A stretch of DNA of 51,194 nt from a virus (IMGVR_UViG_3300039210_000264:1-51194), one strand, 5' to 3'. Numbered from the stretch's first letter, positions 32,933 through 48,641 are shown. The notes: a model not told the origin generated them from the letters alone. Numbers and translations are program-made.

Positions 32933-32933
32933 G

Positions 32934-34158: not shown

Positions 34159-35445
34159 TTAGAGGTTGCCCTTCTCGGCTCGGCTAGCCAGTGTGTCCTC
34201 GTCGAGTGCTGCCAGCGCCACTGTGGCCGCGTTCTGTACGCCCCAGGCTTCCTCCGCGCGCCGCAATATCTCCACACGATCCGAATACACCCTCGACGTC
34301 GTGCCTACGCTCTTGCCGTCGTATTCCACTTCTAAGACCTGGGGCATCGCCAGCCGCGCGCAATAGACCATCAGATCGTTTTCGTACTCACAGGCCAGGA
34401 TGAGCGCGTCCATTTCATCGTGCATGGGCAGTCCCCAGGCCCGGCGCACGTCGGCCATGATATAGCCCTTATTGAGCGCGAGCGCCATCATGCGCACGTG
34501 CTCCATGTCGGCCAGTGGCATGGATACGCCGGCGATCACGTCTTGATCTCCATACACGCGCACAGCCTCGACCAACGCCGCCTGTACAACCTTCACGCGC
34601 TTGGTGCGCGCTTTGCCCTCGGCCATCCCCGCGCGCTTCTCATCCTTGCGCTTGGCCTCCAATTCCTCAACCGGGATGCCTGCCCGCGCTGCCTCCATTT
34701 CGGCATTCTGCTGGGCATACTTCTTCGCATCTTCTTGGTGCTGACGGTACCACTTCTGAACAGACTGGATGCCCTGTATGTCGGTCTCTGCGACGCGCAC
34801 CGACGACTCTTTTCCGACCCATTGTGCCGCTTGGTCGGCTTGCCAGTCGGCGATCGGCGTTTCCTTACCGAAGTCGTCAATCGGCGGCTCCTCGACTCTC
34901 AGGAGCGCCATGCCGTGCCCCGCGGACAGCCGCCCGTCGGCGATGTAGTCGAGCACCTTATCGGGCAGTCTCAACAGCCTCAGCAGGTTCGCCAGCGCCG
35001 GCTGCGACATCCCCAGCTTCGAAGCCAGCGTAGCCTGTGTCAGCTCCGGGTGCGCCTCCCTCAATCGCTTGCACGTCACGGCTAGGGCGACCGGGTTGAT
35101 GTCCTTGCGCTGGATGTTGCTCACCAACCTCTGTATCTCACCCTGCAACTGGCCGGGGGCCTCCACGACCACACAAGGCACGCTCCCCAGCCCCGCCAGC
35201 AGCGCCGCCGCCGCTCGCCTATGCCCTGAGTTGATGTATGTGTGGCCGTGCTTCCTGTAGACCCTCAGAGGCTCCAGGATGCCCACCTGCCGGATGCTCT
35301 CCACCAACCCCGCGAGGTCGGCGTCGCTCTCCGGCGTGATCTCCCCGTGCTCGTTATTCGGGTCGTTCTTCAACACGGCAGGGTCAATCCACGCCACCGC
35401 CATGCCCCCCTCAGTCGCCGCCGGGTGTTCTAAAGTGTTTGTCAT
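34159..35445 (-). CDS. parB: ParB/Spo0J/Noc-family protein (CTP-binding domain plus HTH), no partner ParA
   Basis: LVESIRQVGILEPLRV..SGHRR..SNIQRKDINPV; HTH TQATLASKLGMSQPALANLLRLLRLP...GRLSAGHG. Start placed at the ATGA overlap. Confidence 0.92.
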   Translation of the reverse strand: MTNTLEHPAATEGGMAVAWIDPAVLKNDPNNEHGEITPESDADLAGLVESIRQVGILEPLRVYRKHGHTYINSGHRRAAAALLAGLGSVPCVVVEAPGQLQGEIQRLVSNIQRKDINPVALAVTCKRLREAHPELTQATLASKLGMSQPALANLLRLLRLPDKVLDYIADGRLSAGHGMALLRVEEPPIDDFGKETPIADWQADQAAQWVGKESSVRVAETDIQGIQSVQKWYRQHQEDAKKYAQQNAEMEAARAGIPVEELEAKRKDEKRAGMAEGKARTKRVKVVQAALVEAVRVYGDQDVIAGVSMPLADMEHVRMMALALNKGYIMADVRRAWGLPMHDEMDALILACEYENDLMVYCARLAMPQVLEVEYDGKSVGTTSRVYSDRVEILRRAEEAWGVQNAATVALAALDEDTLASRAEKGNL

Positions 35446-35729
35446 TTTTCTTCCTCTCGTCGAGCAGCGCCGTCTGTCTCCACCGTGAATGCAGCGTCTG
35501 TGATCAGCGGTTGCAGATATCCGCTGGGGTTCTTTGGTTTTGGGGGCGCGCTCAGTTCCTCTGAATAATGACTGCCCCGGCGGATGAGCTTCATCTCGGC
35601 CCCCGGCGCGGCATATTTCAGCATGCACGCCCTACATAAGCGCGCTCCCGTGCCGGGCACCGTCAGCTCCCTCTCTGTGTCGCCCAACACACGCTGGCAC
35701 AGATCGCATCTCTTCGGTAGTGGTAGCAT
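35442..35729 (-). CDS. Small Zn-finger (ClpX-ZBD-like) protein, translationally coupled to parB
   Basis: RCDLC...LTVPGTGARLCRAC; AGGGAGG RBS. Confidence 0.7.
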   Translation of the reverse strand: MLPLPKRCDLCQRVLGDTERELTVPGTGARLCRACMLKYAAPGAEMKLIRRGSHYSEELSAPPKPKNPSGYLQPLITDAAFTVETDGAARREEEK

Positions 35730-35741
35730 CTCGATCCTCCC

Positions 35742-35757
35742 TATTTGACGTGAAATA
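35742..35757. promoter_or_regulatory. parS/NBS-hybrid site 1
   Basis: tatttgacgtgaaata, 15/16 to TATTTCACGTGAAATA; abuts the RBS of the gene upstream of parB. Confidence 0.7.
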
Positions 35758-35760
35758 ACT

Positions 35761-35834
35761 CGTTGGGGTTGGCGCCGCCAGTGGGTTCGACCAACGCCGT
35801 GATAGCGGGCAGACTATCGCACGACTGACGGCGG
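35761..35834 (-). ncRNA. Putative structured intergenic RNA element
   Basis: 10-bp closing stem cgccgtcagt/actggcggcg (one G-U), inner hairpin cgtg.gatag/ctatcacg, possible gttgg/ccaac pseudoknot. Confidence 0.4.
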
Positions 35835-35849
35835 ATAATTGGCTCTGTT

Positions 35850-36227
35850 CTACGAACTCTTCCGCTGCTTATTTGCCTGCCAGATCGTCCTGTACCCCAG
35901 CCACTCCGGCGGCTCGCACTCGTTCGAGGACAGCCACTGCTCCACCGTCAATGCCTGCGCGCTCTTGACCCCATCGAGGTGCGGCGCCGGCGGGCCTTCG
36001 TGCCACACCACCACCACAGGTACGGGCGCGCCTACTCTCACCCCTTGCGACCGTACCGCAGGCTCGATCTTATCCCGCGCCTGGGTAGCGGCGCGAGCGG
36101 CGTGCAAGCCTTCAACCCCCCGATGGGCCTGAGCGTCAGCGCGCTTGATCCACAGACCGCATGCCGCCAGCATGGCGATCACCAGCAGCACCACGTCGAC
36201 CCCCGATAGATTACGTATCACATCCAT
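35850..36227 (-). CDS. Membrane-anchored hypothetical protein
   Basis: N-terminal VVLLVIAMLAACGLW; GGGGGAG RBS. Confidence 0.65.
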   Translation of the reverse strand: MDVIRNLSGVDVVLLVIAMLAACGLWIKRADAQAHRGVEGLHAARAATQARDKIEPAVRSQGVRVGAPVPVVVVWHEGPPAPHLDGVKSAQALTVEQWLSSNECEPPEWLGYRTIWQANKQRKSS

Positions 36228-36254
36228 CTCACTCCCCCCACTCTCTATAGCGCC

Positions 36255-37256
36255 CTAAAAATCAACCTCTGCGGCGTTTGCCCCGTCCACACCCTCAGCG
36301 ACCACCGACGATGGCTCCGCCTCTAGTTTCTCGACTATATTCCGCAGGTGCTTCACCACCTGCATCTTGTCCGTCAGGTTCAACTCGGCGAACTTGGTGG
36401 ATGCCCCGCCCAGCGCCGCCTTGTATTGCGCGATCAGCTGCGCCGTTGTCCACCCGTGAGACCGCAGCGTCTTCCAGTGCTCATGGTATTCGTCCATCAT
36501 GCCCAGGTCGCGTTCGGGCTGCAGGCCCCCCAAGCCCACCAGGCGCGAGGGTTCGACGAAGACGATCTCCCCGGTCACTACGTCCACCGGCTCGCCCGAC
36601 GACGTGCGCTTGCGTGCCGGAGGCGTTACATCCCTCACCGCGCGCTGCTGGTTGTCCGCCTGCTCCATCTCCTCCGTCGTATATAGGCCGCTCGTCTCCG
36701 CCGGAAACGCCTTGCGCAAGGCGGCGCTTTCTCCACACTTTCCAAGCATGACGTGTGGCTTCGAGGCCCACATATGCGTCGGGCTGCCATCTCGCTTGCG
36801 CGCCACGTATTCCGAGTACATCACTGTGCAGGCTACCTCGTGCCACTCCCCCCGAACCCACTTCATGACGTACGCCGTCGCGCTCACCAGTTGCCCCCCC
36901 TCGTCGTACTTAAAGAGCGTGTCCGCCCCCGGCGCATAGTCCCCGGTGCGATCCGCCACCAGTCGCAAGCCGTGGATCGAGACCTGGATTTTCATCACCT
37001 CAGTCTTGCTATCCGCGTCCCACCGCTTTATGGCGTATATCTGGTCAGCAAAAGGATCGAGGCCCGTCTGGTTGCATCTGCTCACGAACAGCACAAGCTC
37101 GTCGTCGGTCGCTCCCTTCGCAATCGTCCGTTTGATAAGCTCTATCCGCTCCGCGCTCAGACCACTGCCACCTGACTGCTGCTCCGTTTGCAGCGCTGTA
37201 ATTGATGTCACGTTGTCTTTCATCCTGCTTACCCCTTTCAGGTCTATGACCTGCAT
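36255..37256 (-). CDS. bet: Single-strand annealing recombinase (Bet/RecT family)
   Basis: GATDDEL.LF...GLDPF..QIYAIKR..QVSIHGLR..A.RTG...W...PHVMLGKC.ES.ALRKAFP..SGLYT.EEM. Confidence 0.93.
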   Translation of the reverse strand: MQVIDLKGVSRMKDNVTSITALQTEQQSGGSGLSAERIELIKRTIAKGATDDELVLFVSRCNQTGLDPFADQIYAIKRWDADSKTEVMKIQVSIHGLRLVADRTGDYAPGADTLFKYDEGGQLVSATAYVMKWVRGEWHEVACTVMYSEYVARKRDGSPTHMWASKPHVMLGKCGESAALRKAFPAETSGLYTTEEMEQADNQQRAVRDVTPPARKRTSSGEPVDVVTGEIVFVEPSRLVGLGGLQPERDLGMMDEYHEHWKTLRSHGWTTAQLIAQYKAALGGASTKFAELNLTDKMQVVKHLRNIVEKLEAEPSSVVAEGVDGANAAEVDF

Positions 37257-37267
37257 ATCTGCGTCGT

Positions 37268-37687
37268 TTATGCTTGCGCTTCGAGAAGAAGGTTCTCTTC
37301 GTTCGCTTCGATCAGCTTGCGGATCACGTTCTTCTGGCCCCGAACGATCTTCTCCAGCCGCGCCTTCTCCCCTGTCAGGTCTTCCACATCGCGTTGGAGC
37401 TTCCGGTAACGCAACTGGCTGATCTGCACCGTGCTGCCGTGTGCCAGCCTTATCTCCCCTTCTCCCGGTAGCTCCTCAAGCGTCGGACGATGCACCCGAA
37501 TATCCCTGGCCTCGTACTGCTTCGTGAACGCGCTCCACGCGCCCTTAGCCAGCCTGTAGCCCGCGCCCACTTTCAGGTCGAGCACGATCTCGGCTTCCTG
37601 CACGGTGATCCACTCTTTGCGGCGGATGCCTTCCAGCACCTGTCGCATATTGGCCCCCTCACTTCTCAGCTTCTCGCTCCATCTCAT
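37268..37687 (-). CDS. Excisionase-like HTH protein with coiled coil
   Basis: WITVQEAEIVLDLKVGAGYRLA...IRVHRPTLE. Confidence 0.55.
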   Translation of the reverse strand: MRWSEKLRSEGANMRQVLEGIRRKEWITVQEAEIVLDLKVGAGYRLAKGAWSAFTKQYEARDIRVHRPTLEELPGEGEIRLAHGSTVQISQLRYRKLQRDVEDLTGEKARLEKIVRGQKNVIRKLIEANEENLLLEAQA

Positions 37688-37831
37688 CGCATCGTCCTCC
37701 GTGGAAAACTTGTACTGCTCGTCCCAACTGTGCTACTCTTAGCGGGACGTATCAGGTTTGCTCACAACGCAGCCGAAGCCGTCACGTGAGGGGGTTGCGG
37801 TATGGACGCAGCTCCCTCTCCTCATACCCAC

Positions 37832-38155
37832 CTAAGCCGCCAGGTCGTCGCTGTCTCCCCCATCCTCTTGCACAGCGCGCCTGCTCTCCACGTACCCACG
37901 CACGGAGTAAATGAGGTGGTGGTTCAGCGCCACCTTCACCCCGCGCCGCCTGATCTGCCCGCACGCCTGGTCTATCAGCACGCAGTGATAGGTCTTGTCC
38001 ACAGCTTCCTGCGCCGCCCCCAAAACCCCCTGGTACTCCCCGTCGGTAACGAGCGCCCCGCCCGGACTGCTCACGCGCCCGGCCTGCACCAGCTTCGCCA
38101 CAACCTCCAACGCCGCGCCTTCCGCGATCTCGCTCTGAAACTCTCCTAAAGCCAT
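37832..38155 (-). CDS. Hypothetical protein
   Basis: ORF with RBS in the early operon. Confidence 0.6.
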   Translation of the reverse strand: MALGEFQSEIAEGAALEVVAKLVQAGRVSSPGGALVTDGEYQGVLGAAQEAVDKTYHCVLIDQACGQIRRRGVKVALNHHLIYSVRGYVESRRAVQEDGGDSDDLAA

Positions 38156-38213
38156 CCTCTTTGACCCCCTTTCTTTGTGAAGTGACGTGACCGTCTTTAC
38201 CAGCGCCGGATGA

Positions 38214-38729
38214 CTACCCCAACGAACTGGCCGCTACTACCTCACCCGCTTCTTCGTCTTCGTCTTCGTCTTCGTCCAAATCCCAATCGTTGGGATACGT
38301 TACGAACGCCCCCAGGTTGGCCGCCTTCGCCCACTGAATAGCCTCTTTGTCGTGGACTTCCGGGTGCTCACTCTGACCGGCCAGCGCTACCTGCAACCGG
38401 ACGACCGCCTCCGCCACGCAGTACGCGATCCAAACCTGGTTGAAAGGTGAGACCTTGCCCGTCACCATCTTTGGCTCCGTGGTAAGTGTCCGGCGCACCA
38501 TCTCGAACGCTTTCCGTGTGCGTATCACAACGCCCGTGATGTCGAGCCACAGCAGGCCGCCATGAAACGGCTCGTCAACGTAGCGCACCACCATCTCGAA
38601 GCCCTCAGCTATACGCCCGTCGTCCGGGCACCACTTGTCCCACCAGCGCAGGGAATTGCCCACGATCCGCTTCGCGTTCTCCCACGTCGGCTCTTCCAGG
38701 CTCCGTATCATCTCGTCAATCTCGCTCAT
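38214..38729 (-). CDS. Hypothetical protein with acidic tail
   Basis: Start MSEIDEM at an ATGA overlap with the HNH stop. Confidence 0.7.
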   Translation of the reverse strand: MSEIDEMIRSLEEPTWENAKRIVGNSLRWWDKWCPDDGRIAEGFEMVVRYVDEPFHGGLLWLDITGVVIRTRKAFEMVRRTLTTEPKMVTGKVSPFNQVWIAYCVAEAVVRLQVALAGQSEHPEVHDKEAIQWAKAANLGAFVTYPNDWDLDEDEDEDEEAGEVVAASSLG

Positions 38730-39229
38730 TGCGTTTCCTCTGCCGGTATATGCTTCCAAAGTCGCCCGGCAATTACCTTGCTTATGCAGCTCGCATTCAC
38801 CCCATATTCTGAGGCGAGCGCGGCGCCCGTAGCCCCGTGCTTGTGCCCGGCACGTATACCGAGCACCTTCTCGACAGTAAGTTTCGCCCTCGGATGGGCC
38901 TCGCCGCGTACCGCCCGTCCTTTCTCTGCCATATCTCGCATATTGTCCGCTTGCGTGCCCAAAAACAGGTGGCTCGGTCGCACACACGCGGGGCTATCGC
39001 ATAAGTGAAGGACCCCCAGCCCGTCAGGGATGGCTCCGTTCACCGATTCATACGAAAAGCGGTGTGCCCTACCAGGGGCCCATTTGGTGCCTTCCTTCGT
39101 GTTGAACTGCCCGTAGCCATTCCAGGATTTACCAGCGGTCCAAAGCCAGCAACTCTCTGTCTTGTTCACCTTGTCCCAAAACCGTCTGCCCAGTTCCATG
39201 TCATTGGCCTCAGATTTCGATGGATCCAT
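38726..39229 (-). CDS. Free-standing HNH endonuclease with C-terminal HTH
   Basis: RFWDKV..CWLW..GYG..RAHRFSY..VLHLCD.PACVRPSHL.LGT.ADNMRDM..KGR..AKLT. Confidence 0.93.
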   Translation of the reverse strand: MDPSKSEANDMELGRRFWDKVNKTESCWLWTAGKSWNGYGQFNTKEGTKWAPGRAHRFSYESVNGAIPDGLGVLHLCDSPACVRPSHLFLGTQADNMRDMAEKGRAVRGEAHPRAKLTVEKVLGIRAGHKHGATGAALASEYGVNASCISKVIAGRLWKHIPAEETQ

Positions 39230-39279
39230 TGATGGAAAAGCCTCCGCACCACTGTATAGTGGTGTTGGAGGTCGTCATT

Positions 39280-39840
39280 CTATGCAACTAACGCCGCTAA
39301 CTCATAATCTTCCAGGTCCAGCTCCATAGCGCTCAGAAAGCTCGACATGGGCGTTGCTGAGCATACCTGGCATACCTGTGCGTCTGGGTCGTTTTGGCAA
39401 CCACAGCGCCCGCAGATAAGCGGCAACTCGGCAAGCGATATAATCTCGCCCGTCTCTGCATCAACCCTTCTGTGCATGGAAGCACGCCTCGTGCTGTCAG
39501 CTATACGTCGGGCCGCTGCTCTCGATGCCTTCGCCGCGTGGTCGCATGGCTTGCCGTTGAGGGCGGCCATACACTCACAGGTGGCCCACAGGCCCTTGAC
39601 GTAGGAGTGGCCACCATGTAGTAGGCTCTTGTAAACGTACTGGTGGTAGCCGTGCTGTATCCCGCTGGTGCTCTTTACGTAGAAGACCAGCGCGCCCGTG
39701 CGAGGGTTCTGTCCGACCCATTGTGCATAGTGCTCACGGCGGGTGGCGCGCTCAAGTGCTGTCTCGATGCGAGCCTCCAGCGTATAAGCGGGGCGGGTGG
39801 ATTTCATTGCTTGTTTGCGGAATGTTGCTGTTGCGGTCAT
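39280..39840 (-). CDS. SWIM zinc-finger protein with C-terminal zinc ribbon
   Basis: TCECMA....PCDH (SWIM) and CGRCG..N....CQVC. Confidence 0.75.
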   Translation of the reverse strand: MTATATFRKQAMKSTRPAYTLEARIETALERATRREHYAQWVGQNPRTGALVFYVKSTSGIQHGYHQYVYKSLLHGGHSYVKGLWATCECMAALNGKPCDHAAKASRAAARRIADSTRRASMHRRVDAETGEIISLAELPLICGRCGCQNDPDAQVCQVCSATPMSSFLSAMELDLEDYELAALVA

Positions 39841-39895
39841 GTTTGGCTCCTTTGCTTGGTATGGACTTGAAAGGATGTGTTTGTTGATTGGTGTT

Positions 39896-40099
39896 TTAGC
39901 CGACGCTGCTGAGGACGCGCTCTTGACGTGTGCGGAGTTCCATAATTTGGCGACGAAGCACCTCGGCCAGGGTGATCCCCGCCAGGGTCGCAGCGCTATC
40001 AACAATGCTGTAAAGCTCCGGCGATACCCACACCTGCATCAGGATCGTATTAGGGTTCGCTACCTTGCGGCTTGGTTTGCGTGTTTTCGTCCCTGCCAT
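39896..40099 (-). CDS. Ribbon-helix-helix regulator (Cro/Arc-like role)
   Basis: MQVWVSPELYSIVDSAATLAGITLAEVLRR; divergent from the repressor. Confidence 0.75.
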   Translation of the reverse strand: MAGTKTRKPSRKVANPNTILMQVWVSPELYSIVDSAATLAGITLAEVLRRQIMELRTRQERVLSSVG

Positions 40100-40103
40100 T
40101 GTC

Positions 40104-40313
40104 TTATCTCCTACCAGCCAGGTTGTGCCTGGCTTTCATGTACGCCGGGTAAGTCGCGTCCCAATACTTGTCGGTTGCCAACTGCTTGACCGGCTTCGGC
40201 TCTAGGCCAGCTGCTTTGTCCGCTTCTCGCTGTGCCAGTACGCGGCAGATAAACAGTTGGCATGAAGGGCCGTGCTTGCAGTTGCTTGTGGTTTCGGTTG
40301 GGGTGCTCGTCAT
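40104..40313 (-). CDS. Hypothetical protein, first gene of the early lytic operon
   Basis: GGAG RBS downstream of a consensus promoter. Confidence 0.6.
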   Translation of the reverse strand: MTSTPTETTSNCKHGPSCQLFICRVLAQREADKAAGLEPKPVKQLATDKYWDATYPAYMKARHNLAGRR

Positions 40314-40357
40314 TGTGAACTCCGATATTTCCTCTATTCGTTCTGCTGTCTATGACC

Positions 40358-40386
40358 ATTATATCAGATATATATGCAGTTGTCAA
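40358..40386 (-). promoter_or_regulatory. Early lytic promoter (perfect sigma70 consensus)
   Basis: TTGACA-17 bp-TATAAT with TGn. Confidence 0.9.
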
Positions 40387-40425
40387 TAGGTAAATCGAGA
40401 TTGGTATAGGGAATAACGAAAATGG

Positions 40426-40454
40426 TTACACTATATAGCGCACATAGATATAAT
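40426..40454 (+). promoter_or_regulatory. Repressor promoter, probably leaderless transcript
   Basis: TTACAC-17 bp-TATAAT; ATG begins 6 nt after the -10 with no SD. Confidence 0.75.
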
Positions 40455-40460
40455 GAATAT

Positions 40461-40928
40461 ATGGCTGTTACGGAGGATAGGGTGCTCCCCTTTGGCGCGG
40501 CGTTGCGATTTTGGCGTAAGCTCCGCGGTTTCAAGCAAGGCGCCCTGGCGCAGGCTTTGGGCATTACGCAGAGCACGTATTCAGGTTGGGAACGCCAGTC
40601 AGAGCCGCCACGGAACACGTTGGCAGTTGCGCAGTTGGCTGTCCTGCTGGGTGTAGAATATGAAGCGTTGAAGGAAGGGCGGATTGAGATGCCCGCGATA
40701 GCTGCGATTCAAGTATCAGAGCAGGACATGATCGAGACTATCGCTCGCCAGCGTGGTATCAGTCCTGAATTACTAAGGGACTGGATTATCGCGCTCATTG
40801 TTATGCCAGCAGAAACCCAGGAGATCGAGGTGGAAGGCGCACGTCTAAAGACACGTCTGTGGCAAAAGCAGCATAAACGCCTGAACGAGGCAAACGCTGA
40901 ATACAACGCTGAGATTGAAGAAGGCTAG
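40461..40928 (+). CDS. Immunity repressor (XRE-family HTH)
   Basis: FGAALRFWRKLRGFKQGALAQALGITQSTYSGWERQSEPP...LAVLLGV; no S24 peptidase domain. Confidence 0.88.
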   Translation: MAVTEDRVLPFGAALRFWRKLRGFKQGALAQALGITQSTYSGWERQSEPPRNTLAVAQLAVLLGVEYEALKEGRIEMPAIAAIQVSEQDMIETIARQRGISPELLRDWIIALIVMPAETQEIEVEGARLKTRLWQKQHKRLNEANAEYNAEIEEG

Positions 40929-40931
40929 AAC

Positions 40932-41246
40932 ATGGAGAAGCTACCACGCAAATACCTGCTACTGCATCCGGCAGTAGTGCCCGCCAAGTGGCTGGAGCTT
41001 GCCGACATTCTGACAGACATGGACACGGCGGCAGCGCACGAAGTAGTAGAGGGCGCACAGGCCCGGGCCTGGTGGGCAGGGTGGAGTGACGTGCGCCCGC
41101 CGAACACGTATGTAAGGGTGCTAGGTAGCCCACCACCAGCCGACTTCGACGCGCTGTGCATTGACGACACCCTACACCGCGCTTATAATCGTGGCACTGA
41201 CACCCACCAATCGACACCTTCGCGCCATAGCCATACAGTCGTATAG
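40932..41246 (+). CDS. Hypothetical protein in the lysogeny operon
   Basis: Starts 3 nt after the repressor stop. Confidence 0.55.
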   Translation: MEKLPRKYLLLHPAVVPAKWLELADILTDMDTAAAHEVVEGAQARAWWAGWSDVRPPNTYVRVLGSPPPADFDALCIDDTLHRAYNRGTDTHQSTPSRHSHTVV

Positions 41247-41362
41247 GGAGGAACACATGTACAAACAACCAAACCAACCTCAGCAGGCGCCAACAGCAGC
41301 GCTGGTCGAGCAAATAGCCAGCGCCACTAAGTGTGCTAATATAGGGCAGTAGGGAACAACCA

Positions 41363-41752
41363 ATGCAAATAGTACAATCTGCTATCGGCTTCTTGCGTGT
41401 GATAGGCTGGTTCGTGCTGGTGGGTGCACTCATATTCAGCGCCGTCTATCTATTCAGTGGGCTGGGTAATGTGACGGATGCCTATAAAGGGCTTTACCTG
41501 CTTCTAGCCGTGAGCATCCTGTTAGGTGGAATATTCGTGTGGGCGGTCTGCATTACGCTGGCGGCCATTACGGAGAACTCTATTGTCAGCCGCGACATAC
41601 TACAGCATGCAGGGCTGCGGTGGCTACGCGAGCGTGCGCACGCCGAGCTACCCCTACGCTATCAGATATACGATAACCACGCAGACCCCGTTGTAAAGCC
41701 TGCCTATCGTGATACGCGCGTAACCCGCCACGCTTTAAGTAAAATCACGTAG
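41363..41752 (+). CDS. Two-TM membrane protein (possible superinfection exclusion)
   Basis: Two hydrophobic helices; located between repressor and integrase. Confidence 0.65.
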   Translation: MQIVQSAIGFLRVIGWFVLVGALIFSAVYLFSGLGNVTDAYKGLYLLLAVSILLGGIFVWAVCITLAAITENSIVSRDILQHAGLRWLRERAHAELPLRYQIYDNHADPVVKPAYRDTRVTRHALSKIT

Positions 41753-41764
41753 GGGTACACAGCC

Positions 41765-42925
41765 ATGCCAAGAACCAGGAAACGTCGGCACAGGGCCAGT
41801 GGCGAAGGCACGATCTTTCAGCGCAAGGATGCCCGTTGGGTCGCCCAGACAGCGCCCCTGCCCCATCTCAATGGCGAGCGCAAAGCCTTCTACGGCAAGA
41901 CCTCGCAGGAGGCCCGCGAGAAACGCGCTGCGTACCTGGCAACCCTCCCCCGGCAGGCCAACCTCTCCTCGCAAAACTGGACGCTCGACGAGTGGATGGA
42001 CTACTGGCTCGAAAACGTAGTGCGCCGGAATCGCCGCGCCATCACACATCGAAATTATGAAGTCGTTATCACCAACCACATCGTCCCCCTCCTGGGCCAC
42101 CTCCGCCTACGCGAGCTTACCCTGCCCCACATAGAGAATTGGCTTGCCGAACTCCATACGGCACACCACCTGTCGAGCCAGTCAATACGCAACGTTTACG
42201 CCGTGCTCAGGGCTGCTCTCAACCATGCAGTCAAATCCGACCTCGTAATTCGCAACGTCGCTACCCTGGCCGATATGCCCAGGAGCGATACCCACAAGGC
42301 CCGACACCTTACCCCAGTTGAGTCCCGCGCGCTCCTGCGGGCCGTAAAGGGCGACCGCCTCGAAGCCCTGTTCGTCTTGTGCCTCTCCCTGGGCTTGCGT
42401 CGTGGCGAGGTGCTGGGCCTCACCTGGGACGACGTAGACCTCGACAAGGGCATCGTTCATATTCAGCACACCCGCTATCCCGTCAGAGGCGCCGACATAA
42501 TCGAAAACCCGAAGACCAGGGCCTCGCAGAGACACCAGGGCCTACCCAGCGTCACCCGCCAGTCGCTCCGGACGCACCGTGCCCGCCAGCAGCAAGAGCG
42601 CCTAAGACTGGGCGCCAAATGGCGGGGGCAGAACTATGTGTTCACCAATATCCGGGGCGCGCCCATGTCCACCAACATGTTCCGCTACCACCTCGACAAG
42701 GCTGTGAAGCGAGCGGGCATCGAGTCGTTGCACATCCACGGTCTGCGTCACACCGCCGTCTCGCTCATGATCAGGCAAAAGGTGGACATCAAAGTGATCT
42801 CCGAGGCTATAGGCCACACCAACATCGCCACTACGCTCGACATCTACGGTCACGTTTACGATGAGCAGCGCCGAGAAATGGCCGAGGCAATGGACGCGAT
42901 CCTGACCGACGAAAACATAATTTAG
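41765..42925 (+). CDS. int: Tyrosine integrase (ICEBs1/Tn916-like with arm-binding domain)
   Basis: GEGTIFQRKDARW arm domain; catalytic GLRRGE, PKT, HGLRH, GH, IY. Confidence 0.96.
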   Translation: MPRTRKRRHRASGEGTIFQRKDARWVAQTAPLPHLNGERKAFYGKTSQEAREKRAAYLATLPRQANLSSQNWTLDEWMDYWLENVVRRNRRAITHRNYEVVITNHIVPLLGHLRLRELTLPHIENWLAELHTAHHLSSQSIRNVYAVLRAALNHAVKSDLVIRNVATLADMPRSDTHKARHLTPVESRALLRAVKGDRLEALFVLCLSLGLRRGEVLGLTWDDVDLDKGIVHIQHTRYPVRGADIIENPKTRASQRHQGLPSVTRQSLRTHRARQQQERLRLGAKWRGQNYVFTNIRGAPMSTNMFRYHLDKAVKRAGIESLHIHGLRHTAVSLMIRQKVDIKVISEAIGHTNIATTLDIYGHVYDEQRREMAEAMDAILTDENII

Positions 42926-43004
42926 GGGCGTGTTGCTGTCAGGTCGCTGTCAATTCGTTGTTCCAAACCTACCCACCCACCCCAGAGAGGCCGAAATCAG
43001 GCAC

Positions 43005-43034
43005 AAAAATAGCGCCCAGCAGTGGAGCGCTATT
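43005..43034 (-). terminator. Intrinsic terminator
   Basis: Minus strand aatagcgctcca-ctgc-tgggcgctattttt. Confidence 0.75.
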
Positions 43035-43068
43035 CAGTTAGGGTACATTCTACTATATTACGCGACGA

Positions 43069-43162
43069 TTCCTTCGAGGGCAACTTAACTAAGCCTGGTG
43101 CATGGGAGTTGCACTATTTGGGGGTGCAGCCCCTCCAAAGGCCGGGCTAATTAACCGAGGAA
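43069..43162 (+). ncRNA. Putative structured RNA (three-way junction) inside attP
   Basis: Nested pairing ttccttcg/cgaggaa, ttaactaagcctgg/ccgggctaattaa, hairpins gtgca/tgcac and tttggggg/ccctccaaa; TATATT at 43054-43059. Confidence 0.5.
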
Positions 43163-43223
43163 CAGAGGGCTACGCTGTCAAGATGCTGTCATCCGGCACT
43201 GTCGTCAACGGTTGCCAGATACA

Positions 43224-43433
43224 TCAACGAGCCGCATACTCGTTCAGCCGCCGCAGAGCCTCACGTACACCACGCGACAAGTAGCCGCCGCCTAGCTCGC
43301 GGAGCTGGTCGGCGTCCTCGGCTGTCATGGTGAGCGTGTGCTTTGTCATCCGAGGCACACCCGTTTCTTCCGCGCTCTTCCGGCCAGCGCCGGGTCGCTT
43401 GCCTCCGTGTCTAATGTTGATAGTCTTCGTCAA
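43224..43433 (-). CDS. Small DNA-binding protein (GGKRPGAGRK motif plus RHH)
   Basis: HGGKRPGAGRK...KHTLTMTAEDADQLRELGGGYLSRGVREAL. Confidence 0.75.
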   Translation of the reverse strand: MTKTINIRHGGKRPGAGRKSAEETGVPRMTKHTLTMTAEDADQLRELGGGYLSRGVREALRRLNEYAAR

Positions 43434-43656
43434 TTTGCGGCCCCCCTTTTCTCCCCTCTATTATACGCTCATGGGCCGCCTCGCACTCTTCGCAGAAATA
43501 GTAGAAGGAGATGCCCTTCACCCCGCCGGCGTTCCAACGCACACTATTGCAAACCACAGCGCGCGCTTCGCAAATGACGCCCTATTGGTACCCCTGGCAT
43601 TTGATCCTCGGTTGATCCTCCACCTGGAGGGTGCGGCGTTCCGTAATACTTGCCAT
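43411..43656 (-). pseudogene. Small Cys-rich gene with internal TAG at codon 25
   Basis: AAAGGGGGG RBS; MASITERRTLQVEDQPRIKCQGYQ*GVICEAR...YFCEECEAAH...; stop at 43582-43584. Confidence 0.6.
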
Positions 43657-43674
43657 TGCCCCCCCTTTCGAGTT

Positions 43675-43699
43675 GGGCGCGATCGTGGTGGCCGCGCCC
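43675..43699. repeat. Intergenic GC hairpin repeat, copy 1
   Basis: gggcgcgatcgtggtggccgcgccc; 22/25 identical to 44100-44124. Confidence 0.85.
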
Positions 43700-43709
43700 T
43701 GGCTTTTGT

Positions 43710-44078
43710 CTAAGCACACAGCCGGCAGTGGTGATCCTGCCAATCATCGCACTTGACCACGAACGGCGTGCTGACCCACACCGGATGCTCTATGCACTTG
43801 ACTATGGCGGCCGGTATGCGCTCCGGCTCGACCCAGCATATCGTCAACGACTCCAACTGCTCGACCATGTATAGGCCCTCGCCCCCGGCCAGCACCCTGC
43901 AAATCGCCAGCTCCGACCCGCTGCCATCGAACGCATCGTTGAGCAGCAGGTACGTCGTCCCCTCGTGTTCGACCCTGTAGCTGTTGCAAGCCACCCAGGA
44001 AGCCGTACGCTCGAAGTCCGCCTTGATCTCTTCCAGCGTGGCCGGCTTCACACTAAACCGCCGTATCTTGTGTATCAT
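43710..44078 (-). CDS. Hypothetical accessory protein
   Basis: AGGAG RBS; YLLLNDAFDG...EQLESLT motif; C-terminal HCRLCA. Confidence 0.8.
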   Translation of the reverse strand: MIHKIRRFSVKPATLEEIKADFERTASWVACNSYRVEHEGTTYLLLNDAFDGSGSELAICRVLAGGEGLYMVEQLESLTICWVEPERIPAAIVKCIEHPVWVSTPFVVKCDDWQDHHCRLCA

Positions 44079-44099
44079 CGTCTTTCTCCTATGGATGTG

Positions 44100-44124
44100 G
44101 GGCGCGGTCGCGGGGGCCGCGCCC
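44100..44124. repeat. Intergenic GC hairpin repeat, copy 2
   Basis: gggcgcggtcgcgggggccgcgccc. Confidence 0.85.
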
Positions 44125-44132
44125 TGCTACTG

Positions 44133-44849
44133 CTATCTAAACGCGACCCAGAGATCGCATCCCAGTCCTACCACAGCCCGCGTACCCGCCGTGCCGATGC
44201 CCATGCGATTGGTTTTACGGACGGGCGATCCCTCTTTTAGAAGAGGCCACAATTCGTTGATGTAATCTGTCCAGTCATCATGCCGACTCTTTGTGAAGTC
44301 TGTATTGAGGAAAAACAGCCGCCCCATTCCGTCAACAGCATCCGGCGACTCCGTCCCGTAATACTCCCCGGCAAACCGACCCTCGAAGAAATACCGCGCC
44401 AGGTTGTCAACGTGTTCTACCGCGCAAGGTTTGGATGTCATGAGCGCCAGCCCGTACCCGTCGCTCTCGAAACTCTTGTAATCGTACCAACTGTGCTCCC
44501 CATCCGGGCACACGTCCGGGTTCTGGTCCAGCCACCCCGCGAAACTGACCTCATCTCGAAACCACGCCGGCAGCTTCTCGCCTATCAAAAAGCGCTGTAC
44601 CTCTACGATCTCGCCACACTCGAACGCCGACTCGAAGAACACTCGGAACGAATAGGCATCCTGCCTATCGACCTGGACTTGTAGGAGCGCTAGCGCCCGC
44701 TCGGTGCAACGGTACGCCATACCGTCTATAGCAAACGTGCATTCCCGCCCGCAACTGTGAGCGAGGGGAGGCATCAAGGCTGTGCCACACGCAGGGCAGT
44801 GAATTACAACCGCCTTGCTTTTCGTTGATTCTCTTGATATAATCTTCAT
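44133..44849 (-). CDS. Hypothetical acidic/aromatic accessory protein with N-terminal CPAC..H.C
   Basis: Start MKIISRES after AAAGGAG. Confidence 0.8.
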   Translation of the reverse strand: MKIISRESTKSKAVVIHCPACGTALMPPLAHSCGRECTFAIDGMAYRCTERALALLQVQVDRQDAYSFRVFFESAFECGEIVEVQRFLIGEKLPAWFRDEVSFAGWLDQNPDVCPDGEHSWYDYKSFESDGYGLALMTSKPCAVEHVDNLARYFFEGRFAGEYYGTESPDAVDGMGRLFFLNTDFTKSRHDDWTDYINELWPLLKEGSPVRKTNRMGIGTAGTRAVVGLGCDLWVAFR

Positions 44850-44934
44850 TGCAATCTCCTTTACCGGGGTTGTGTGCGGACGGTGTGGCCTCAAGAACTA
44901 AACCGTCCGCTTTTCTTATTGTTTCTACCTTATA

Positions 44935-44963
44935 AGTATATCATACTTTTATCAAGATTGCAA
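44935..44963 (-). promoter_or_regulatory. Strong sigma70 promoter of the accessory operon, with overlapping inverted repeat
   Basis: TTGCAA-17 bp-TATACT with TGn; AAGTAT-gat-ATACTT overlaps the -10. Confidence 0.82.
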
Positions 44964-45134
44964 GGGTTTTAGGCACGAATATCCGATATTCGTTTGCTTG
45001 CCGTGCCTGTTTTGGGCAGCAAAAAGCCCGCCTTGCCAGCCGGCCCGCCAGAGCGTAAAATGAAGACCACCGCACCGGCCCACATAGAGCCGGTCATTCT
45101 TCGCTATTGCACTGCACCAGGAGGCCCCCACGCC

Positions 45135-46649
45135 ATGCCGGAACAAGAACCCGCACAAGTAGCCAATACCCTATACTACGGCGACAACCTGCCTATCCTG
45201 AAAGAGCATATACGCACCGAGTCTGTAGACCTCGTATATCTCGACCCGCCCTTCAACTCGAACCGCAACTACAACGTCCTCTTCCGCGACGAGAGGGGCA
45301 CCGAGTCGGAGGCGCAGATCACAGCCTTCGAGGACACCTGGCACTGGGGAGAAGACGCCGAGCGCACCTACCACGACCTCGTGACCGGCGCGCCCGACCG
45401 CGTGTCAAAGATGATAGCCGCCCTGCGAGACTTCGTAGGCACTAATCAGATGATGGCCTACCTCGTGATGATGGCCGCCCGCCTGGTCGAGCTTCACCGC
45501 GTCCTAAAGCCTACGGGGAGCCTGTACCTCCACTGCGATCCCACGGCAAGCCACTACCTGAAGATAATGTTGGACGCGTTATTTGAGCCGATGAACTTTA
45601 GGAATGAAATCATTTGGAGCTATAAAAGGTACACAGCGAGCAGCAATAGGTTTCAGCGTCTCCATGACGACATCCTACTTTACGGCAAAGGTCAGCAGGT
45701 TACTTTCAATGACATTAGAGAAGAATATGGTGAGAAATCGGGCGTTGCTGACTCTCACTATAAGCAAGATGAAGATGGTCGTTGGTATCGTTGGCAGAAG
45801 CGACGGGGTCAGGAAGCGTATAAGGTTTATCTGTCAGAAGGCCGTCGTTTGGGTGACGTATGGGAGATACCAATCATCAATGCATCAGCGAAGGAACGAC
45901 TCGGCTACCCCACCCAAAAACCTCTCGCCCTCCTGGAGCGCATCATCGAGGCGAGCAGCAACCCCGGCGACGTCGTGCTCGACCCCTTCGCCGGGTGCGG
46001 AACGACCGTAGCCGCCGCTCAGAAGCTCGGCAGGCGCTGGATAGGCATAGACATCACCCATCTCTCCATCGCCCTCCTCAAATACCGTCTGGTGGCGATG
46101 TACCCCGGCATTACGTTCAAGGTGGTGGGTGAGCCGCCAGACATCGGTGCAGCTCGTCAGCTTGCGCAGGATGACCGCTACCAGTTCCAGTGGTGGGCGC
46201 TCTCACTCGTGCACGCCAAGCCCCTGGGCGGCCAGGAGGGGAGCAAAGAGGGCAAGAAGGGGTCTGACCGTGGCATAGACGGCGTGATCAACTTCTTCGA
46301 CGACAACACGGGCAAGCCCAGGCGCGTGCTGGTGCAGGTCAAGAGCGGGCACGTCAAGTCAGGCGATGTGCGCGACCTCCGGGGCACAGTCGAGCGAGAG
46401 GGCGCAGCTATGGGCGTCTTCATCACCCTCGAAGCCTTCACCAGCGAGATGAGCAGGGAGGCAGTCAGCACCGGCTACTACACGTCCGAGGGCTGGGGGA
46501 AAGACTACCCGCGCATCCAAATCCTCTCCATCGCCGACCTGCTCCGTGGTGCCGAGGTCAAGATGCCGCCCGCGTTCGGCACATTCAAGGAAGCGCAGCG
46601 TGTCAAGGCGCAGGGCCAGCAGTTGGGGTTCGGCGAACTGGACGATTAG
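45135..46649 (+). CDS. Beta-class N6A/N4C DNA methyltransferase fused to an Mrr-like PD-(D/E)xK domain
   Basis: YLDPPF, YPTQKP, LDPFAGCGTT; C-terminal DRGIDG...VQVKSG; AGGAGG RBS. Confidence 0.93.
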   Translation: MPEQEPAQVANTLYYGDNLPILKEHIRTESVDLVYLDPPFNSNRNYNVLFRDERGTESEAQITAFEDTWHWGEDAERTYHDLVTGAPDRVSKMIAALRDFVGTNQMMAYLVMMAARLVELHRVLKPTGSLYLHCDPTASHYLKIMLDALFEPMNFRNEIIWSYKRYTASSNRFQRLHDDILLYGKGQQVTFNDIREEYGEKSGVADSHYKQDEDGRWYRWQKRRGQEAYKVYLSEGRRLGDVWEIPIINASAKERLGYPTQKPLALLERIIEASSNPGDVVLDPFAGCGTTVAAAQKLGRRWIGIDITHLSIALLKYRLVAMYPGITFKVVGEPPDIGAARQLAQDDRYQFQWWALSLVHAKPLGGQEGSKEGKKGSDRGIDGVINFFDDNTGKPRRVLVQVKSGHVKSGDVRDLRGTVEREGAAMGVFITLEAFTSEMSREAVSTGYYTSEGWGKDYPRIQILSIADLLRGAEVKMPPAFGTFKEAQRVKAQGQQLGFGELDD

Positions 46650-46676
46650 AGGGGTACGCTAATATACTTGGCGCAC

Positions 46677-47579
46677 CTACGAAGCCAGCCAGGCCCCCAG
46701 CTCCACGTAACATTGCGGATCGCGCATAATCATGTTCGACCAACTTTGATCCACCCGGCCATTGCTCACGAACGGGCAGAAGCTCTTGATAGGCCCTGAC
46801 CACGGCTGAGCGGCCAGTAGGTCATACATCCGCATGACGGCCAGCATCCTCTGCACGTCTGTGAGCACCATTGACTTGACCGAGATCTCGTTTATCCACG
46901 CCTCCCCTTGTATGCGCTCCAATTCAATCCCCACGCGCCACAGGAGGCGGTTCTCGTCTTCGGGACTGGTATAGCTGTGGCAGTAAGCGTGCATACCGGC
47001 AGGCCCGCCGTTGTACACCTCGCCGCACGCTCTTGCCCAACTCTGCCGGCCAGGCTCCGGCGCGTCCCTCGGGGTCAGCCTTCGGTGCGACCAGCCAGGC
47101 GCGACCGTCACGATGCCCATCGGTGTGAGCAGTTTGCGCATCTCGCCGACCGCGTACTGGTGCAGCCACAAGCGCCCCTGCGGGAAGTTGGCCTCCGGTG
47201 CGTTCCCCCATTCGTGCCCATCGCCCCGCGTCAGGTCGTACTCTATCTCCGGCTCATTCCCCGCTATTGCAGCCTCGACCACCAACCCCGGCACATCCTG
47301 CCGGATCTCGCTGAGTTGCCGGGCGATCCGCGCGCGACCGTCTGCCGTGTAGTACGAGCCGTTCACATCTTGCTGGTTGCCCCGCGACGGCTCCTCGATG
47401 CGGAATATGACCGACACGCCCTCAGCAGCCAGCCGGTGCAACTGCTCCCGCCGGTTGTAACCGACCCCCAGGAACAACTGCACGCGATGGATGCCGCTTA
47501 CAGCACGATTGTTGTGGTCCTGTTCGGCCATTTCGTCAGGGAAGAAAAGACACCACGTACCCGATTTCTTTTGCACCAA
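46677..47579 (-). CDS. Glycoside hydrolase-like protein (clan GH-A TIM barrel)
   Basis: AGNEP (acid/base), GMHAY, WINE (nucleophile). Confidence 0.7.
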   Translation of the reverse strand: MVQKKSGTWCLFFPDEMAEQDHNNRAVSGIHRVQLFLGVGYNRREQLHRLAAEGVSVIFRIEEPSRGNQQDVNGSYYTADGRARIARQLSEIRQDVPGLVVEAAIAGNEPEIEYDLTRGDGHEWGNAPEANFPQGRLWLHQYAVGEMRKLLTPMGIVTVAPGWSHRRLTPRDAPEPGRQSWARACGEVYNGGPAGMHAYCHSYTSPEDENRLLWRVGIELERIQGEAWINEISVKSMVLTDVQRMLAVMRMYDLLAAQPWSGPIKSFCPFVSNGRVDQSWSNMIMRDPQCYVELGAWLAS

Positions 47580-47588
47580 AACACCCCT

Positions 47589-47604
47589 TATTCCACGTGA
47601 AATA
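47589..47604. promoter_or_regulatory. parS/NBS-hybrid site 2
   Basis: tattccacgtgaaata, 15/16; abuts the RBS of the glycoside hydrolase gene. Confidence 0.75.
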
Positions 47605-47608
47605 CGAA

Positions 47609-47986
47609 CTATGCCGCCCGCAGCTTGCCCTCAGCCTCGATAGCCACCGCCACGCGTCCCAGGTAAGCCGACGCGAGCGCGACCGCGGCCCGTTCCATCG
47701 AGGGCCACGCCTGCAATGAGAACGCGCCGAACGTGACCCAGCCATCAGCAACCTGACGGACAGATCCCACGTGCCGGTCAAACTCGCCGTCCGCTATGCC
47801 CACCAGGTAGAGCCGAGGATCGCCGCTGCGATACAGCACGATCTCGGTCCCTACCAGGTAGAGCCTGTGGTGAACGCATATCTTCACAGGCTCCTGCCAG
47901 GCCACTTCCAGCATGTGCCGCATGCCCAGCTGGCCTTTGTGCGGGAGTTTGGTTTTGCTCATTGCGGCGGTCAGCTTGTCCATCAC
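47609..47986 (-). CDS. Hypothetical protein
   Basis: GTGA overlap with the upstream gene. Confidence 0.65.
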   Translation of the reverse strand: MMDKLTAAMSKTKLPHKGQLGMRHMLEVAWQEPVKICVHHRLYLVGTEIVLYRSGDPRLYLVGIADGEFDRHVGSVRQVADGWVTFGAFSLQAWPSMERAAVALASAYLGRVAVAIEAEGKLRAA

Positions 47987-48222
47987 GCCGCCATTCCGGT
48001 CAACGCGATCCAGGTTGCCGCATCAAGCGATAGCAGCCACACCAGAAGCCGCGCGCGCTGGGGGCCTATGCCGTTAATTGGCGTGAGGTCTTTGGGTTGT
48101 ATGCCCTTGTCGTATCGCGCCACGAGCTCAGCGCGCGACGTGATATGCAAGATAGAGATGATGATCGGTATCTGCCAGGCGTGCTGGCCGGGCGGTAAAG
48201 TCGTTGAATTGGTTGTGTTCAT
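47983..48222 (-). CDS. Small helix-hairpin-helix protein
   Basis: DLTPINGIGPQRARLL; GGAGG RBS before MNTT. Confidence 0.65.
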   Translation of the reverse strand: MNTTNSTTLPPGQHAWQIPIIISILHITSRAELVARYDKGIQPKDLTPINGIGPQRARLLVWLLSLDAATWIALTGMAA

Positions 48223-48233
48223 TTCAGCCTCCA

Positions 48234-48249
48234 TATTTCACGTGAAATA
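48234..48249. promoter_or_regulatory. parS/NBS-hybrid site 3 (perfect palindrome)
   Basis: TATTTCACGTGAAATA within the 18-bp palindrome 48233-48250; overlapped by a second inverted repeat aaatatcaat-tg-attgatattt (48245-48266). Confidence 0.8.
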
Positions 48250-48293
48250 TCAATTGATTGATATTTAGCCATCTGGCAACCGTTGGCACTTGT

Positions 48294-48641
48294 TTAGCCC
48301 ATCAGAGGTTTCCACACCTTCAGGTAGAGGAATTGACTGCCGATCAGCACCTGTAGAGCAGCAAAGACTTTTTCGTACAGTGTCTCCCAGTCCCAGGCCG
48401 CGGCCCCGAGCGTGGCCTGTATTGCGTACACACCGATGATGATCACGAACGGCAGGGAATAGGCCAGCACCGTCTTCGCGAAGTCACCCAGCTCGACGTG
48501 CTTCCATCTCTGCCAGCCCCAGATGACCAGCCCGATGATGAACGCGGTAGCTGCTGACCAGCCCGCTTCGGTTGCCAGCCATGCCAGCAGCCCTAAGAAC
48601 GTCGAGGGGTCCGGATTTGCTAGTTGTTGAATTAGTCCCAT
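48294..48641 (-). CDS. Holin-like membrane protein
   Basis: 115 aa, about three TM segments, directly after the endolysin. Confidence 0.75.
   Translation of the reverse strand: MGLIQQLANPDPSTFLGLLAWLATEAGWSAATAFIIGLVIWGWQRWKHVELGDFAKTVLAYSLPFVIIIGVYAIQATLGAAAWDWETLYEKVFAALQVLIGSQFLYLKVWKPLMG

Follow-up and report, generated by a model that had tools for sequence, protein, structure and literature searches.

Three variant parS-type palindromes in a phage genome and the ParA-less ParB-like protein that probably reads them

The pairing of the chromosomal protein ParB (Spo0J) with its palindromic site parS, TGTTTCACGTGAAACA, is usually treated as near-invariant across bacteria, and the rules by which its specificity can change came from engineered proteins; a second described pair is Noc with its binding site (NBS), TATTTCCCGGGAAATA. 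The present analysis concerns a ParB-like protein and three 16-bp palindromes in a virus genome, IMGVR_UViG_3300039210_000264, a linear IMG/VR record of 51,194 bases that was analysed over its whole length (the window) and is rated 100% complete by CheckV. With Spo0J the protein shares the N-terminal nucleotide-binding fold and the helix-turn-helix (HTH) domain, and the site shares with parS its 16-bp palindromic form and TTTCACGTGAAA core, whereas Q replaces R at position 173 (Caulobacter ParB numbering, anchored on Q162, G170, S172 and N178 as in PMC7383237) and A/T replaces G/C at bases 2 and 15 of the site. Further differences from Spo0J are GHRR in place of GERR, S in place of the E of ENLQR, the loss of K171 and R204, the lack of a ParA and of a ParA-binding motif, and a different, larger C-terminal half. 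With Noc the window protein shares Q173, the A at base 2 of its site and the absence of a dedicated ParA, and when its DNA-binding domain is superposed on 6y93, a structure of Noc with NBS, the target TM-score is 0.86; unlike Noc, it has G instead of R at 201, with L179 and R184 where Noc has K at 179/184, and its site keeps the CAC/GTG core.

Proteins of mixed specificity have been engineered between these two pairs. According to Jalal et al. 2020 (PMC7383237), variable position 1 is preferred as A by variants with Q173 and position 6 as C by those with R201; the combinations QKAG, QTKG and QKKG moved to a site combining features of parS with those of NBS, and QTAG was non-functional in the Caulobacter ParB scaffold. 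The three switched proteins (PtoN5, PtoN6 and PtoN11, respectively) share with the window ParB Q173, G201 and a basic residue at 179 or 184, but are Caulobacter ParB mutants, and natural Q-type ParBs mostly lack the basic residue; we infer that the site preferred by these mixed-specificity variants is exactly TATTTCACGTGAAATA, the palindrome of the window. On mobile elements, KorB (RK2), BisD (ICEclc) and VirB (Shigella) are described as ParB-fold cytidine triphosphate (CTP) clamps that have no partition role, regulate genes and use palindromic sites near the genes they control. The window's sites end 9–12 nt before start codons, and the KorB structure 8qa9 is among the fold matches of the window model, although the recognition sequences of all three proteins differ from the window site. 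Orphan ParBs are common on prophages (PNAS 2025 survey, PMC12704722) and resemble the window protein in their ParB-CTPase fold, their position outside a parAB operon and their lack of a ParA-binding motif, but the available part of that survey gives them without a DNA site or a function, whereas the window ParB has a candidate site and a reading residue.

The palindromes were located by searching the whole window for the TATTTCACGTGAAATA pattern with up to 2 mismatches, with 100 dinucleotide shuffles as control. Exactly three matches were obtained, one perfect and two with one mismatch each, against none of any kind in the 100 shuffles; the same three sites were the only ones at 3 mismatches (0.06 expected), and base composition predicts 1.2e-4 copies with at most one mismatch in 51,194 bases. 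The three sites are thus real and far beyond chance. NBS falls within 2 mismatches of the pattern, and since only the three CAC-core sites were matched, the window holds no copy of it. All three sites are intergenic, in gaps 35730-35849, 47580-47608 and 48223-48293 of the open reading frame (ORF) map, the second of them a 29-nt gap mostly occupied by its site, and together they span 12.5 kb. On the coding strand they have a common layout, palindrome, 1 nt, GGAGG-like Shine-Dalgarno (SD) sequence and start codon, with the spacings given in Table 1, and each heads a transcription unit: orf95-parB, orf79-orf125 and orf300. An earlier note on this DNA, made from the sequence alone, had reported three such intergenic copies and a ParB-family gene about 300 bp from one of them, and had proposed a motif scan with an enrichment estimate; the search and the ORF map agree with it on each count, the measured distance being 297 nt between the orf95 site and the likely parB start, with the 95-residue ORF in between.

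The parB gene lies in an ORF at 34159-35628 (minus strand) and probably starts at ATG 35445, which shares an ATGA with the stop codon of the ORF before it. Its product combines the nucleotide-binding fold of ParB with a ParB HTH in which residue 173 is Q and residue 201 is G. Pfam HTH_ParB (PF17762) was matched at 1.4e-16 (60.9 bits, cut-off 22.6) and ParB_N (PF02195) at 1.1e-7 (32.2 bits, cut-off 26.3), and the matching PHROGs carry the label ‘ParB-like partition protein’. The HTH peptide picked out in the earlier note aligns without gaps to that of B. subtilis Spo0J, PDB 6sdk, the best PDB sequence match (1.5e-25), giving Q173, L179, R184 and G201 together with M171 and M204, and the DNA contacts Q162, G170, S172 and N178 are kept. 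The note's caveat that the conserved R204 is M here stands, and has to be widened, K171 also being M.

In the nucleotide-binding part, GHRR aligns with the GERR box of Spo0J and SNIQR replaces ENLQR, so that H and S occupy the positions of the B. subtilis catalytic glutamates E78 and E111. In B. subtilis, E78Q and E111Q keep CTP binding and clamp closure, lose hydrolysis and spread more widely, and CTP hydrolysis is required for ParABS-driven segregation (PMC8494293); with H and S at these places, slow or no CTP hydrolysis and long-lived clamps are expected of the window protein. The ParA-binding motif as defined in PMC12704722, [LFI]G[KR]G[LFI], was not found in it. A structure model (mean predicted local distance difference test score, pLDDT, 89.8) has matches among ParB, Noc and KorB structures only for residues 1-210; it also shows a long helical hairpin at 202-280 and a helical domain at 300-410, neither with a match in the PDB. 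Past residue 204 there is no Pfam match, and the canonical ParB C-terminal dimerisation domain was not found; dimerisation could possibly run through the helical C-terminal domain.

No ParA is encoded in the genome, as the earlier note had said: six-frame searches of the window with PF13614 and PF01656 at E≤1 returned nothing, each of these profiles having matched 14/14 control genomes, and the deviant Walker A motif KGGxGK[ST] is absent from all six frames of a record rated complete.

For the pairing of reading residue and site in other viruses, the exact 16-mer was collected from IMG/VR on 54 contigs (64 loci), 10 of which carry two or more exact copies, and 48 of the 54 were searched for HTH_ParB. 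The domain was present above the Pfam cut-off on five of the 10 multi-copy contigs and on four of the 38 single-copy contigs searched. All nine proteins have Q173, a GERR box and G, S or T, never R, at 201. Eight of the nine genes carry a copy of the site (0–2 mismatches) within the HTH-coding region, encoding I-S-R-E-I or a close variant, and seven of the nine contigs have an exact copy outside parB. As a control, HTH_ParB was sought in 17 viral contigs that each hold between two and five exact copies of canonical parS; it was found in none, so such viruses presumably borrow the ParB of their host. Many small viral contigs (6–18 kb, some with inverted terminal repeats) are of this canonical kind, with 2–5 exact parS copies (L086, L093, L100, L101, L140, L144, L150, L152 and others).

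In bacteria, a scan of species-representative genomes for the exact site gave at least 120 loci, and a ParB HTH was sought in 120 of them, in stretches of up to 8 kb. Among the loci listed, 25 have one, counted with score thresholds that differed slightly between the two batches in which the 120 were scanned: 12 Q..G, one Noc-like Q..R, nine R..G and three with V, D or E at 173; of the nine loci with an R173 ParB, eight hold canonical parS as well. The Q..G loci listed come mostly from one phylum (Armatimonadetes, CSP1-3 and Ca. Fervidifonticultor are among the names), where the protein is an ordinary ParB of about 300 residues adjoining ParA and the site lies inside parB, about 100 bp past the HTH, encoding I-S-R-E-I. 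In five genomes of this phylum, the single variant site, next to parA, is accompanied by no canonical parS genome-wide, and some bacteria use TATTTCACGTGAAATA itself as chromosomal parS; a Chloroflexi metagenome-assembled genome (MAG) has the same in-parB arrangement next to parA. Across 94 genomes of the phylum, the exact variant site occurs in 24 (G084 and G090 included) and the exact canonical site in 20, with both in one genome and mixed half-site forms in none.

These loci had been reached through the site; a site-blind test took the best 30 HTH_ParB loci of the same 94 genomes irrespective of it, none of them from G084 or G090. A variant-type in-gene site was present in 24/24 Q173 parBs, seven of them exact, and exact canonical parS, encoding V-S-R-E-T, in 5/5 R173 parBs, while the one P173 gene had no site. 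Recurrent in-gene variants of the chromosomal Q-type parB include TATTTCACGTGGAATA, which is also the variant at the second site of the window. The genomes of the phylum (G066-G159; L220-L276, L326-L361) fall into two blocks, one with R173 and canonical parS inside parB (VSRET), the other with Q173 and, at the same place, TATTTCACGTGAAATA (ISREI), and in this phylum centromere and reader are re-coded together.

Other candidate readers were seen near the exact variant site. In L219, L299 and L309 (two in L309), ParB-like HTHs of the form GKS[VDE]SYIRN, in which residue 173 is V, D or E, stand no more than a few kb from it, pointing to a third reader type, and many further matches of the genome scan bear names of Bacteroidota type. 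In the origin regions of Bacillaceae (L256, L258, L277 and L284; Cerasibacillus, Ornithinibacillus) a variant site stands between two canonical parS sites, in L256 about 0.8 kb from the Noc-like (Q..R) gene, and may be an in-gene relic of noc.

What the earlier note had stated of the sequences of parS and NBS, and of the parts played by residues 173, 179, 184 and 201, agrees with PMC7383237. The note's prediction that Q173 with G201 should read the half-site TATTTCAC is borne out by the nine viral proteins, by the contrast of 24/24 and 5/5 in the phylum and by the engineered variants of that paper. As far as paired genes and sites can tell, the rule holds in nature that Q173 goes with A at base 2 and that a non-R201 residue keeps the CAC core, and on the same ground the window ParB and its palindrome are very likely a matched pair, the protein probably binding the three sites. 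Two parts of the earlier proposal have to be given up. The description as a singular natural ParB-Noc intermediate does not hold, since Q173/G201 is the norm both in the protein's own clade and in a second phage clade, as well as in parAB operons of chromosomes; the window pair belongs to a widespread natural class of ParB/parS variants and is not a unique hybrid. Nor is a permissive basic residue at 179 or 184 needed: it is mostly absent from natural Q-type ParBs (QTAG, QANG and similar), among which QTAG is common, so R184 is not the enabling feature.

The nearest relatives of the window ParB fall into 27 clusters (P0018-P0044) of a library of 1.84 billion proteins and nearly all have Q173, mostly with G201; the GHRR box and Q173 are invariant in a 25-sequence alignment of them, and one comes from a Chloroflexia MAG. 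The best tblastn match to the window ParB was 43% identical over 35% of the protein, and a search for related loci with this protein alone found none. Alignment-based searches gave three weak loci in viral contigs, three in metagenomes and none in genomes; the only informative one, L203, pairs an R173 ParB with canonical parS in two exact copies.

From these observations, the reading that we favour, with fair confidence, is that the phage's own ParB-like protein docks at the three palindromes as parS-type sites and would serve as a clamp-forming regulator or organiser without ParA. A ParB dimer would nucleate on the palindrome, close round the DNA as a nucleotide-bound clamp and slide into the flanking DNA, and with little or no CTP hydrolysis the clamp would be long-lived. 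Its output would be control of the three units, including autoregulation of parB, or local organisation of the phage DNA, in the manner of KorB, BisD and VirB and unlike plasmid-style partition. Because the phage has an integrase but neither ParA nor a ParA-binding motif, and because the sites abut the ribosome-binding sites of their units, one of them parB's own, regulation or DNA organisation is likeliest; that gene regulation is the main output can be put forward tentatively.

A wider and more speculative extension, which we consider possible, is that exchange of R173 for Q together with G for A at base 2 has repeatedly re-coded the ParB-parS pair, that phages run it as a ParA-free, non-hydrolysing clamp at operon starts, controlling phage genes without cross-talk to the host centromere, and that the same swap gave a whole bacterial clade its chromosomal centromere. 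In nature the mixed site that was predicted does occur together with the reading residue to match it, in several phage lineages and at the chromosomal centromere of that clade, which provides a natural test of the recognition code and ready-made orthogonal ParB/parS pairs for DNA labelling. The window ParB lacks both hydrolysis glutamates, the link to ParA and the usual C-terminal domain, and its sites stand at gene starts; if a long-lived clamp regulating genes were the right description of it, orphan prophage ParBs would gain a site and a function.

Several observations weigh against this account. The association of Q173 with the variant site is not exclusive, the exact-site loci including the nine with R173, the one with Q..R and the three with V, D or E. 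The covariation in the phylum was probably inherited from one or a few switches and does not represent many independent events; it shows that the pairing exists and is stable, and does not itself show repeated origin. Co-occurrence of protein and site comes from two other ParB clades, with no second informative locus for the GHRR clade, and in 20 kb of L200, whose ParB has 38% identity and a divergent HTH, neither such a site nor repeated palindromes were found. Five contigs with 2–5 copies of the site have neither ParB_N nor HTH_ParB (G001, G003, G004, G008 and G009), and one of them, G003, with three exact sites, is rated 100% complete; G008 may be a fragment, its site flanks being identical to those of the ParB-positive G010. 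The earlier note had held that the motif in related phages lacking the gene would speak against it, and these contigs, the complete-rated G003 among them, bear that out in part. The window ParB has M at 171 and at 204, where ParB and Noc alike keep the DNA contacts K171 and R204, and no sigma-70-like promoter was located at the three window sites.

The position of sites at gene starts, which suggests control of expression or a loading of clamps where transcription units begin, has also to be read with care. In the multi-copy contigs of other phages, an SD sequence and a start codon of an ORF of at least 60 amino acids follow within 35 nt at 13 of the 22 sites outside parB, compared with 12/40 in single-copy contigs and 324/2560 at random positions; the baseline consists of random positions and not random intergenic ones, and much of the enrichment may come from the intergenic location of the sites alone. 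Behind several of them lie genes whose products resemble, by eye, a small terminase subunit, an integrase or a replication protein.

If the palindrome were instead a host-type parS, a Q-type host ParB would load on the phage DNA and plug into, or interfere with, host ParABS and SMC, and the phage ParB would be a competitor or helper of the host protein and not part of a private system. Bacteria of the kind required exist in the phylum described above and in the Chloroflexi MAG, where the variant site inside parB, next to parA, is the parS-like site, in the phylum the sole one in the genome. Borrowing of host ParB appears to be a real strategy, given the 0/17 viruses with canonical parS clusters that encode ParB, and the five ParB-less contigs with variant sites would fit it. 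On the other hand, the window phage encodes its own matching ParB, and its portal has no match in the 94 genomes of the phylum and one weak match (32% identity) among 401 Chloroflexota genomes. An exact site was found in 164 of those 401 (G509 and G310 counted), and among the matches listed all sites are canonical except that of G165. In a Pelotomaculum genome the main contig carries canonical parS, and the variant site is confined to a small contig. The orthogonality to host parS that the earlier note proposed looks right for Firmicutes-type phages and may or may not extend to the window phage. Loading of a host ParB is for these reasons a fairly unlikely explanation of the window sites.

The palindrome could also be an operator or promoter element for another phage or host factor, such as a small DNA-binding protein, with the match to the ParB code a coincidence in the window phage. 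All three sites end 9–12 nt before a start codon, the five multi-copy contigs without ParB would be accounted for, and small ORFs without a family match follow the sites. In other phages the site often stands between a terminator hairpin and the SD sequence, and often continues with AT, giving TGAAATAAT, which resembles an extended -10 element. A transcription start set by a -10 element within the motif would, however, cut off the SD sequence, and the window sites lack the AT extension and any called sigma-70-like promoter. The exact 16-mer, moreover, accompanies Q173 ParBs in lineages unrelated to one another and occurs within the genes for them, and we therefore regard an unrelated operator as unlikely. 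An operator of the CI/Cro type was rejected, there being no copy of the site in the divergent control region beside the CI-like repressor gene (40290-40440), which holds a perfect sigma-70 promoter.

ParBs with dispersed centromere sites are known for plasmid prophages, N15 being an example, and a true partition centromere, with ParB at the three sites of a plasmid-like phage moved by a host ParA or another motor, would suit sites spread over 12.5 kb. The integrase, the lack of ParA and of a ParA-binding motif and the missing hydrolysis residues together argue against classical partition; a CI-like repressor is present as well, and segregation in B. subtilis needs the hydrolysis for which the window ParB has lost both catalytic glutamates, so that this possibility appears very improbable. 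An action of the palindrome in RNA, as an SD-adjacent hairpin serving as translational operator, is disfavoured to the point of being scarcely credible, for although the site abuts the SD sequence on the coding strand in 3/3 cases, the folds are weak (z-scores -1.2, -1.05 and +1.24), the mismatch in the orf95 site breaks the stem with no compensation, and the fully symmetric centre of the palindrome suggests a protein dimer on double-stranded DNA. A further candidate role for the protein, that of the thymine-dioxygenase-activating ParB (PMC13229309), was set aside, the class described there being without a DNA-binding domain, which the window ParB has, and the neighbouring ORFs matching no family.

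The 16-mer TATTTCACGTGAAATA was not found in the literature as searched by text, figures and supplements lying outside that search, and 11-base half-site strings gave, among the matches listed, only unrelated ones. Coordinates of the sites, the units behind them and other features are collected in Table 1.

Table 1. Positions of the palindromes, the parB gene and further features in the 51,194-base window
Feature	Position	Strand	Description
Exact palindrome TATTTCACGTGAAATA	48234-48249		0 mismatches; on the minus strand followed by 1 nt and GGAGG, with the orf79 ATG 11 nt beyond the palindrome
Palindrome TATTTCACGTGGAATA (minus-strand sequence)	47589-47604		one mismatch; 9 nt (TTG start) or 12 nt (GTG start) ahead of orf300
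Palindrome TATTTCACGTCAAATA (minus-strand sequence)	35742-35757		one mismatch; 12 nt ahead of the ATG of orf95, first gene of the orf95-parB unit
ParB-like protein	34159-35445	-	428 aa from ATG 35445; 414 aa if start 35403 (database call)
orf95	35442-35729	-	95 aa; CxxC...CxxC zinc-ribbon; stop overlaps the parB ATG as ATGA
orf79	47983-48222	-	first gene past the exact site; helix-hairpin-helix-like stretch by eye
orf125	47609-47986	-	second gene of the unit past the exact site
orf300	46677-47579	-	gene past the second site
RecT	36255-37256	-	
CI-like repressor	40422-40928	+	
Integrase	41765-42925	+	
DNA methyltransferase	44994-46649	+	
Endolysin	48705-49607	-	
Promoter	40358-40386	-	perfect TTGACA-17-TATAAT with upstream TG
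Initiator/HNH protein	32435-32950	-	171 aa
Tail-region ORF	3388-9075	-	1895 aa
Tail-region ORF	9072-13178	-	1368 aa
Holin-like ORF	48294-48641	-	115 aa

Pfam, PHROG and PADLOC gave no family match for orf79, orf95, orf125 or orf300. By its overlap, orf95 is translationally coupled to parB, and it is a candidate ParB partner in a KorA-like role, which is only a lead. Zinc-ribbon modules (CxxC...CxxC) recur beside, or fused to, phage Q-type ParBs (L014, L069, P0003 and P0023), and in L014 small zinc-ribbon ORFs lie behind three of four site copies; the similarity among the modules of the window and of other phages is weak (E=0.017, a single comparison). The orf79-orf125 and orf300 units lie just past the lysis genes, near the likely prophage end. 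For orf300, GNEPE and NE motifs were noticed by eye, and the Atlas points weakly to a glycoside-hydrolase family carried by 25% of one cluster; that identity is no more than a lead, and orf300 may be a second wall-degrading enzyme. Its Atlas lead toward Chloroflexota is likewise a lead only.

The window phage is tailed and temperate. In addition to the genes of Table 1, those for the small and large terminase subunits, a Mu-type (DUF935) portal and a major head protein were assigned; no tRNA gene was found in the window, INPHARED held no DNA match to the phage, and a search for relatives of the portal returned just one 11-kb fragment. The 171-residue protein joins the N-terminal part of a replication-initiator family to an HNH endonuclease domain, PHROG gave no match for the two very large tail-region ORFs, and the 115-residue ORF beyond the endolysin has many hydrophobic stretches and looks holin-like by eye. 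Nearly all genes are on the minus strand, and the perfect TTGACA-17-TATAAT promoter, which points away from the CI-like repressor gene, is likely the early promoter of the lytic minus-strand genes.

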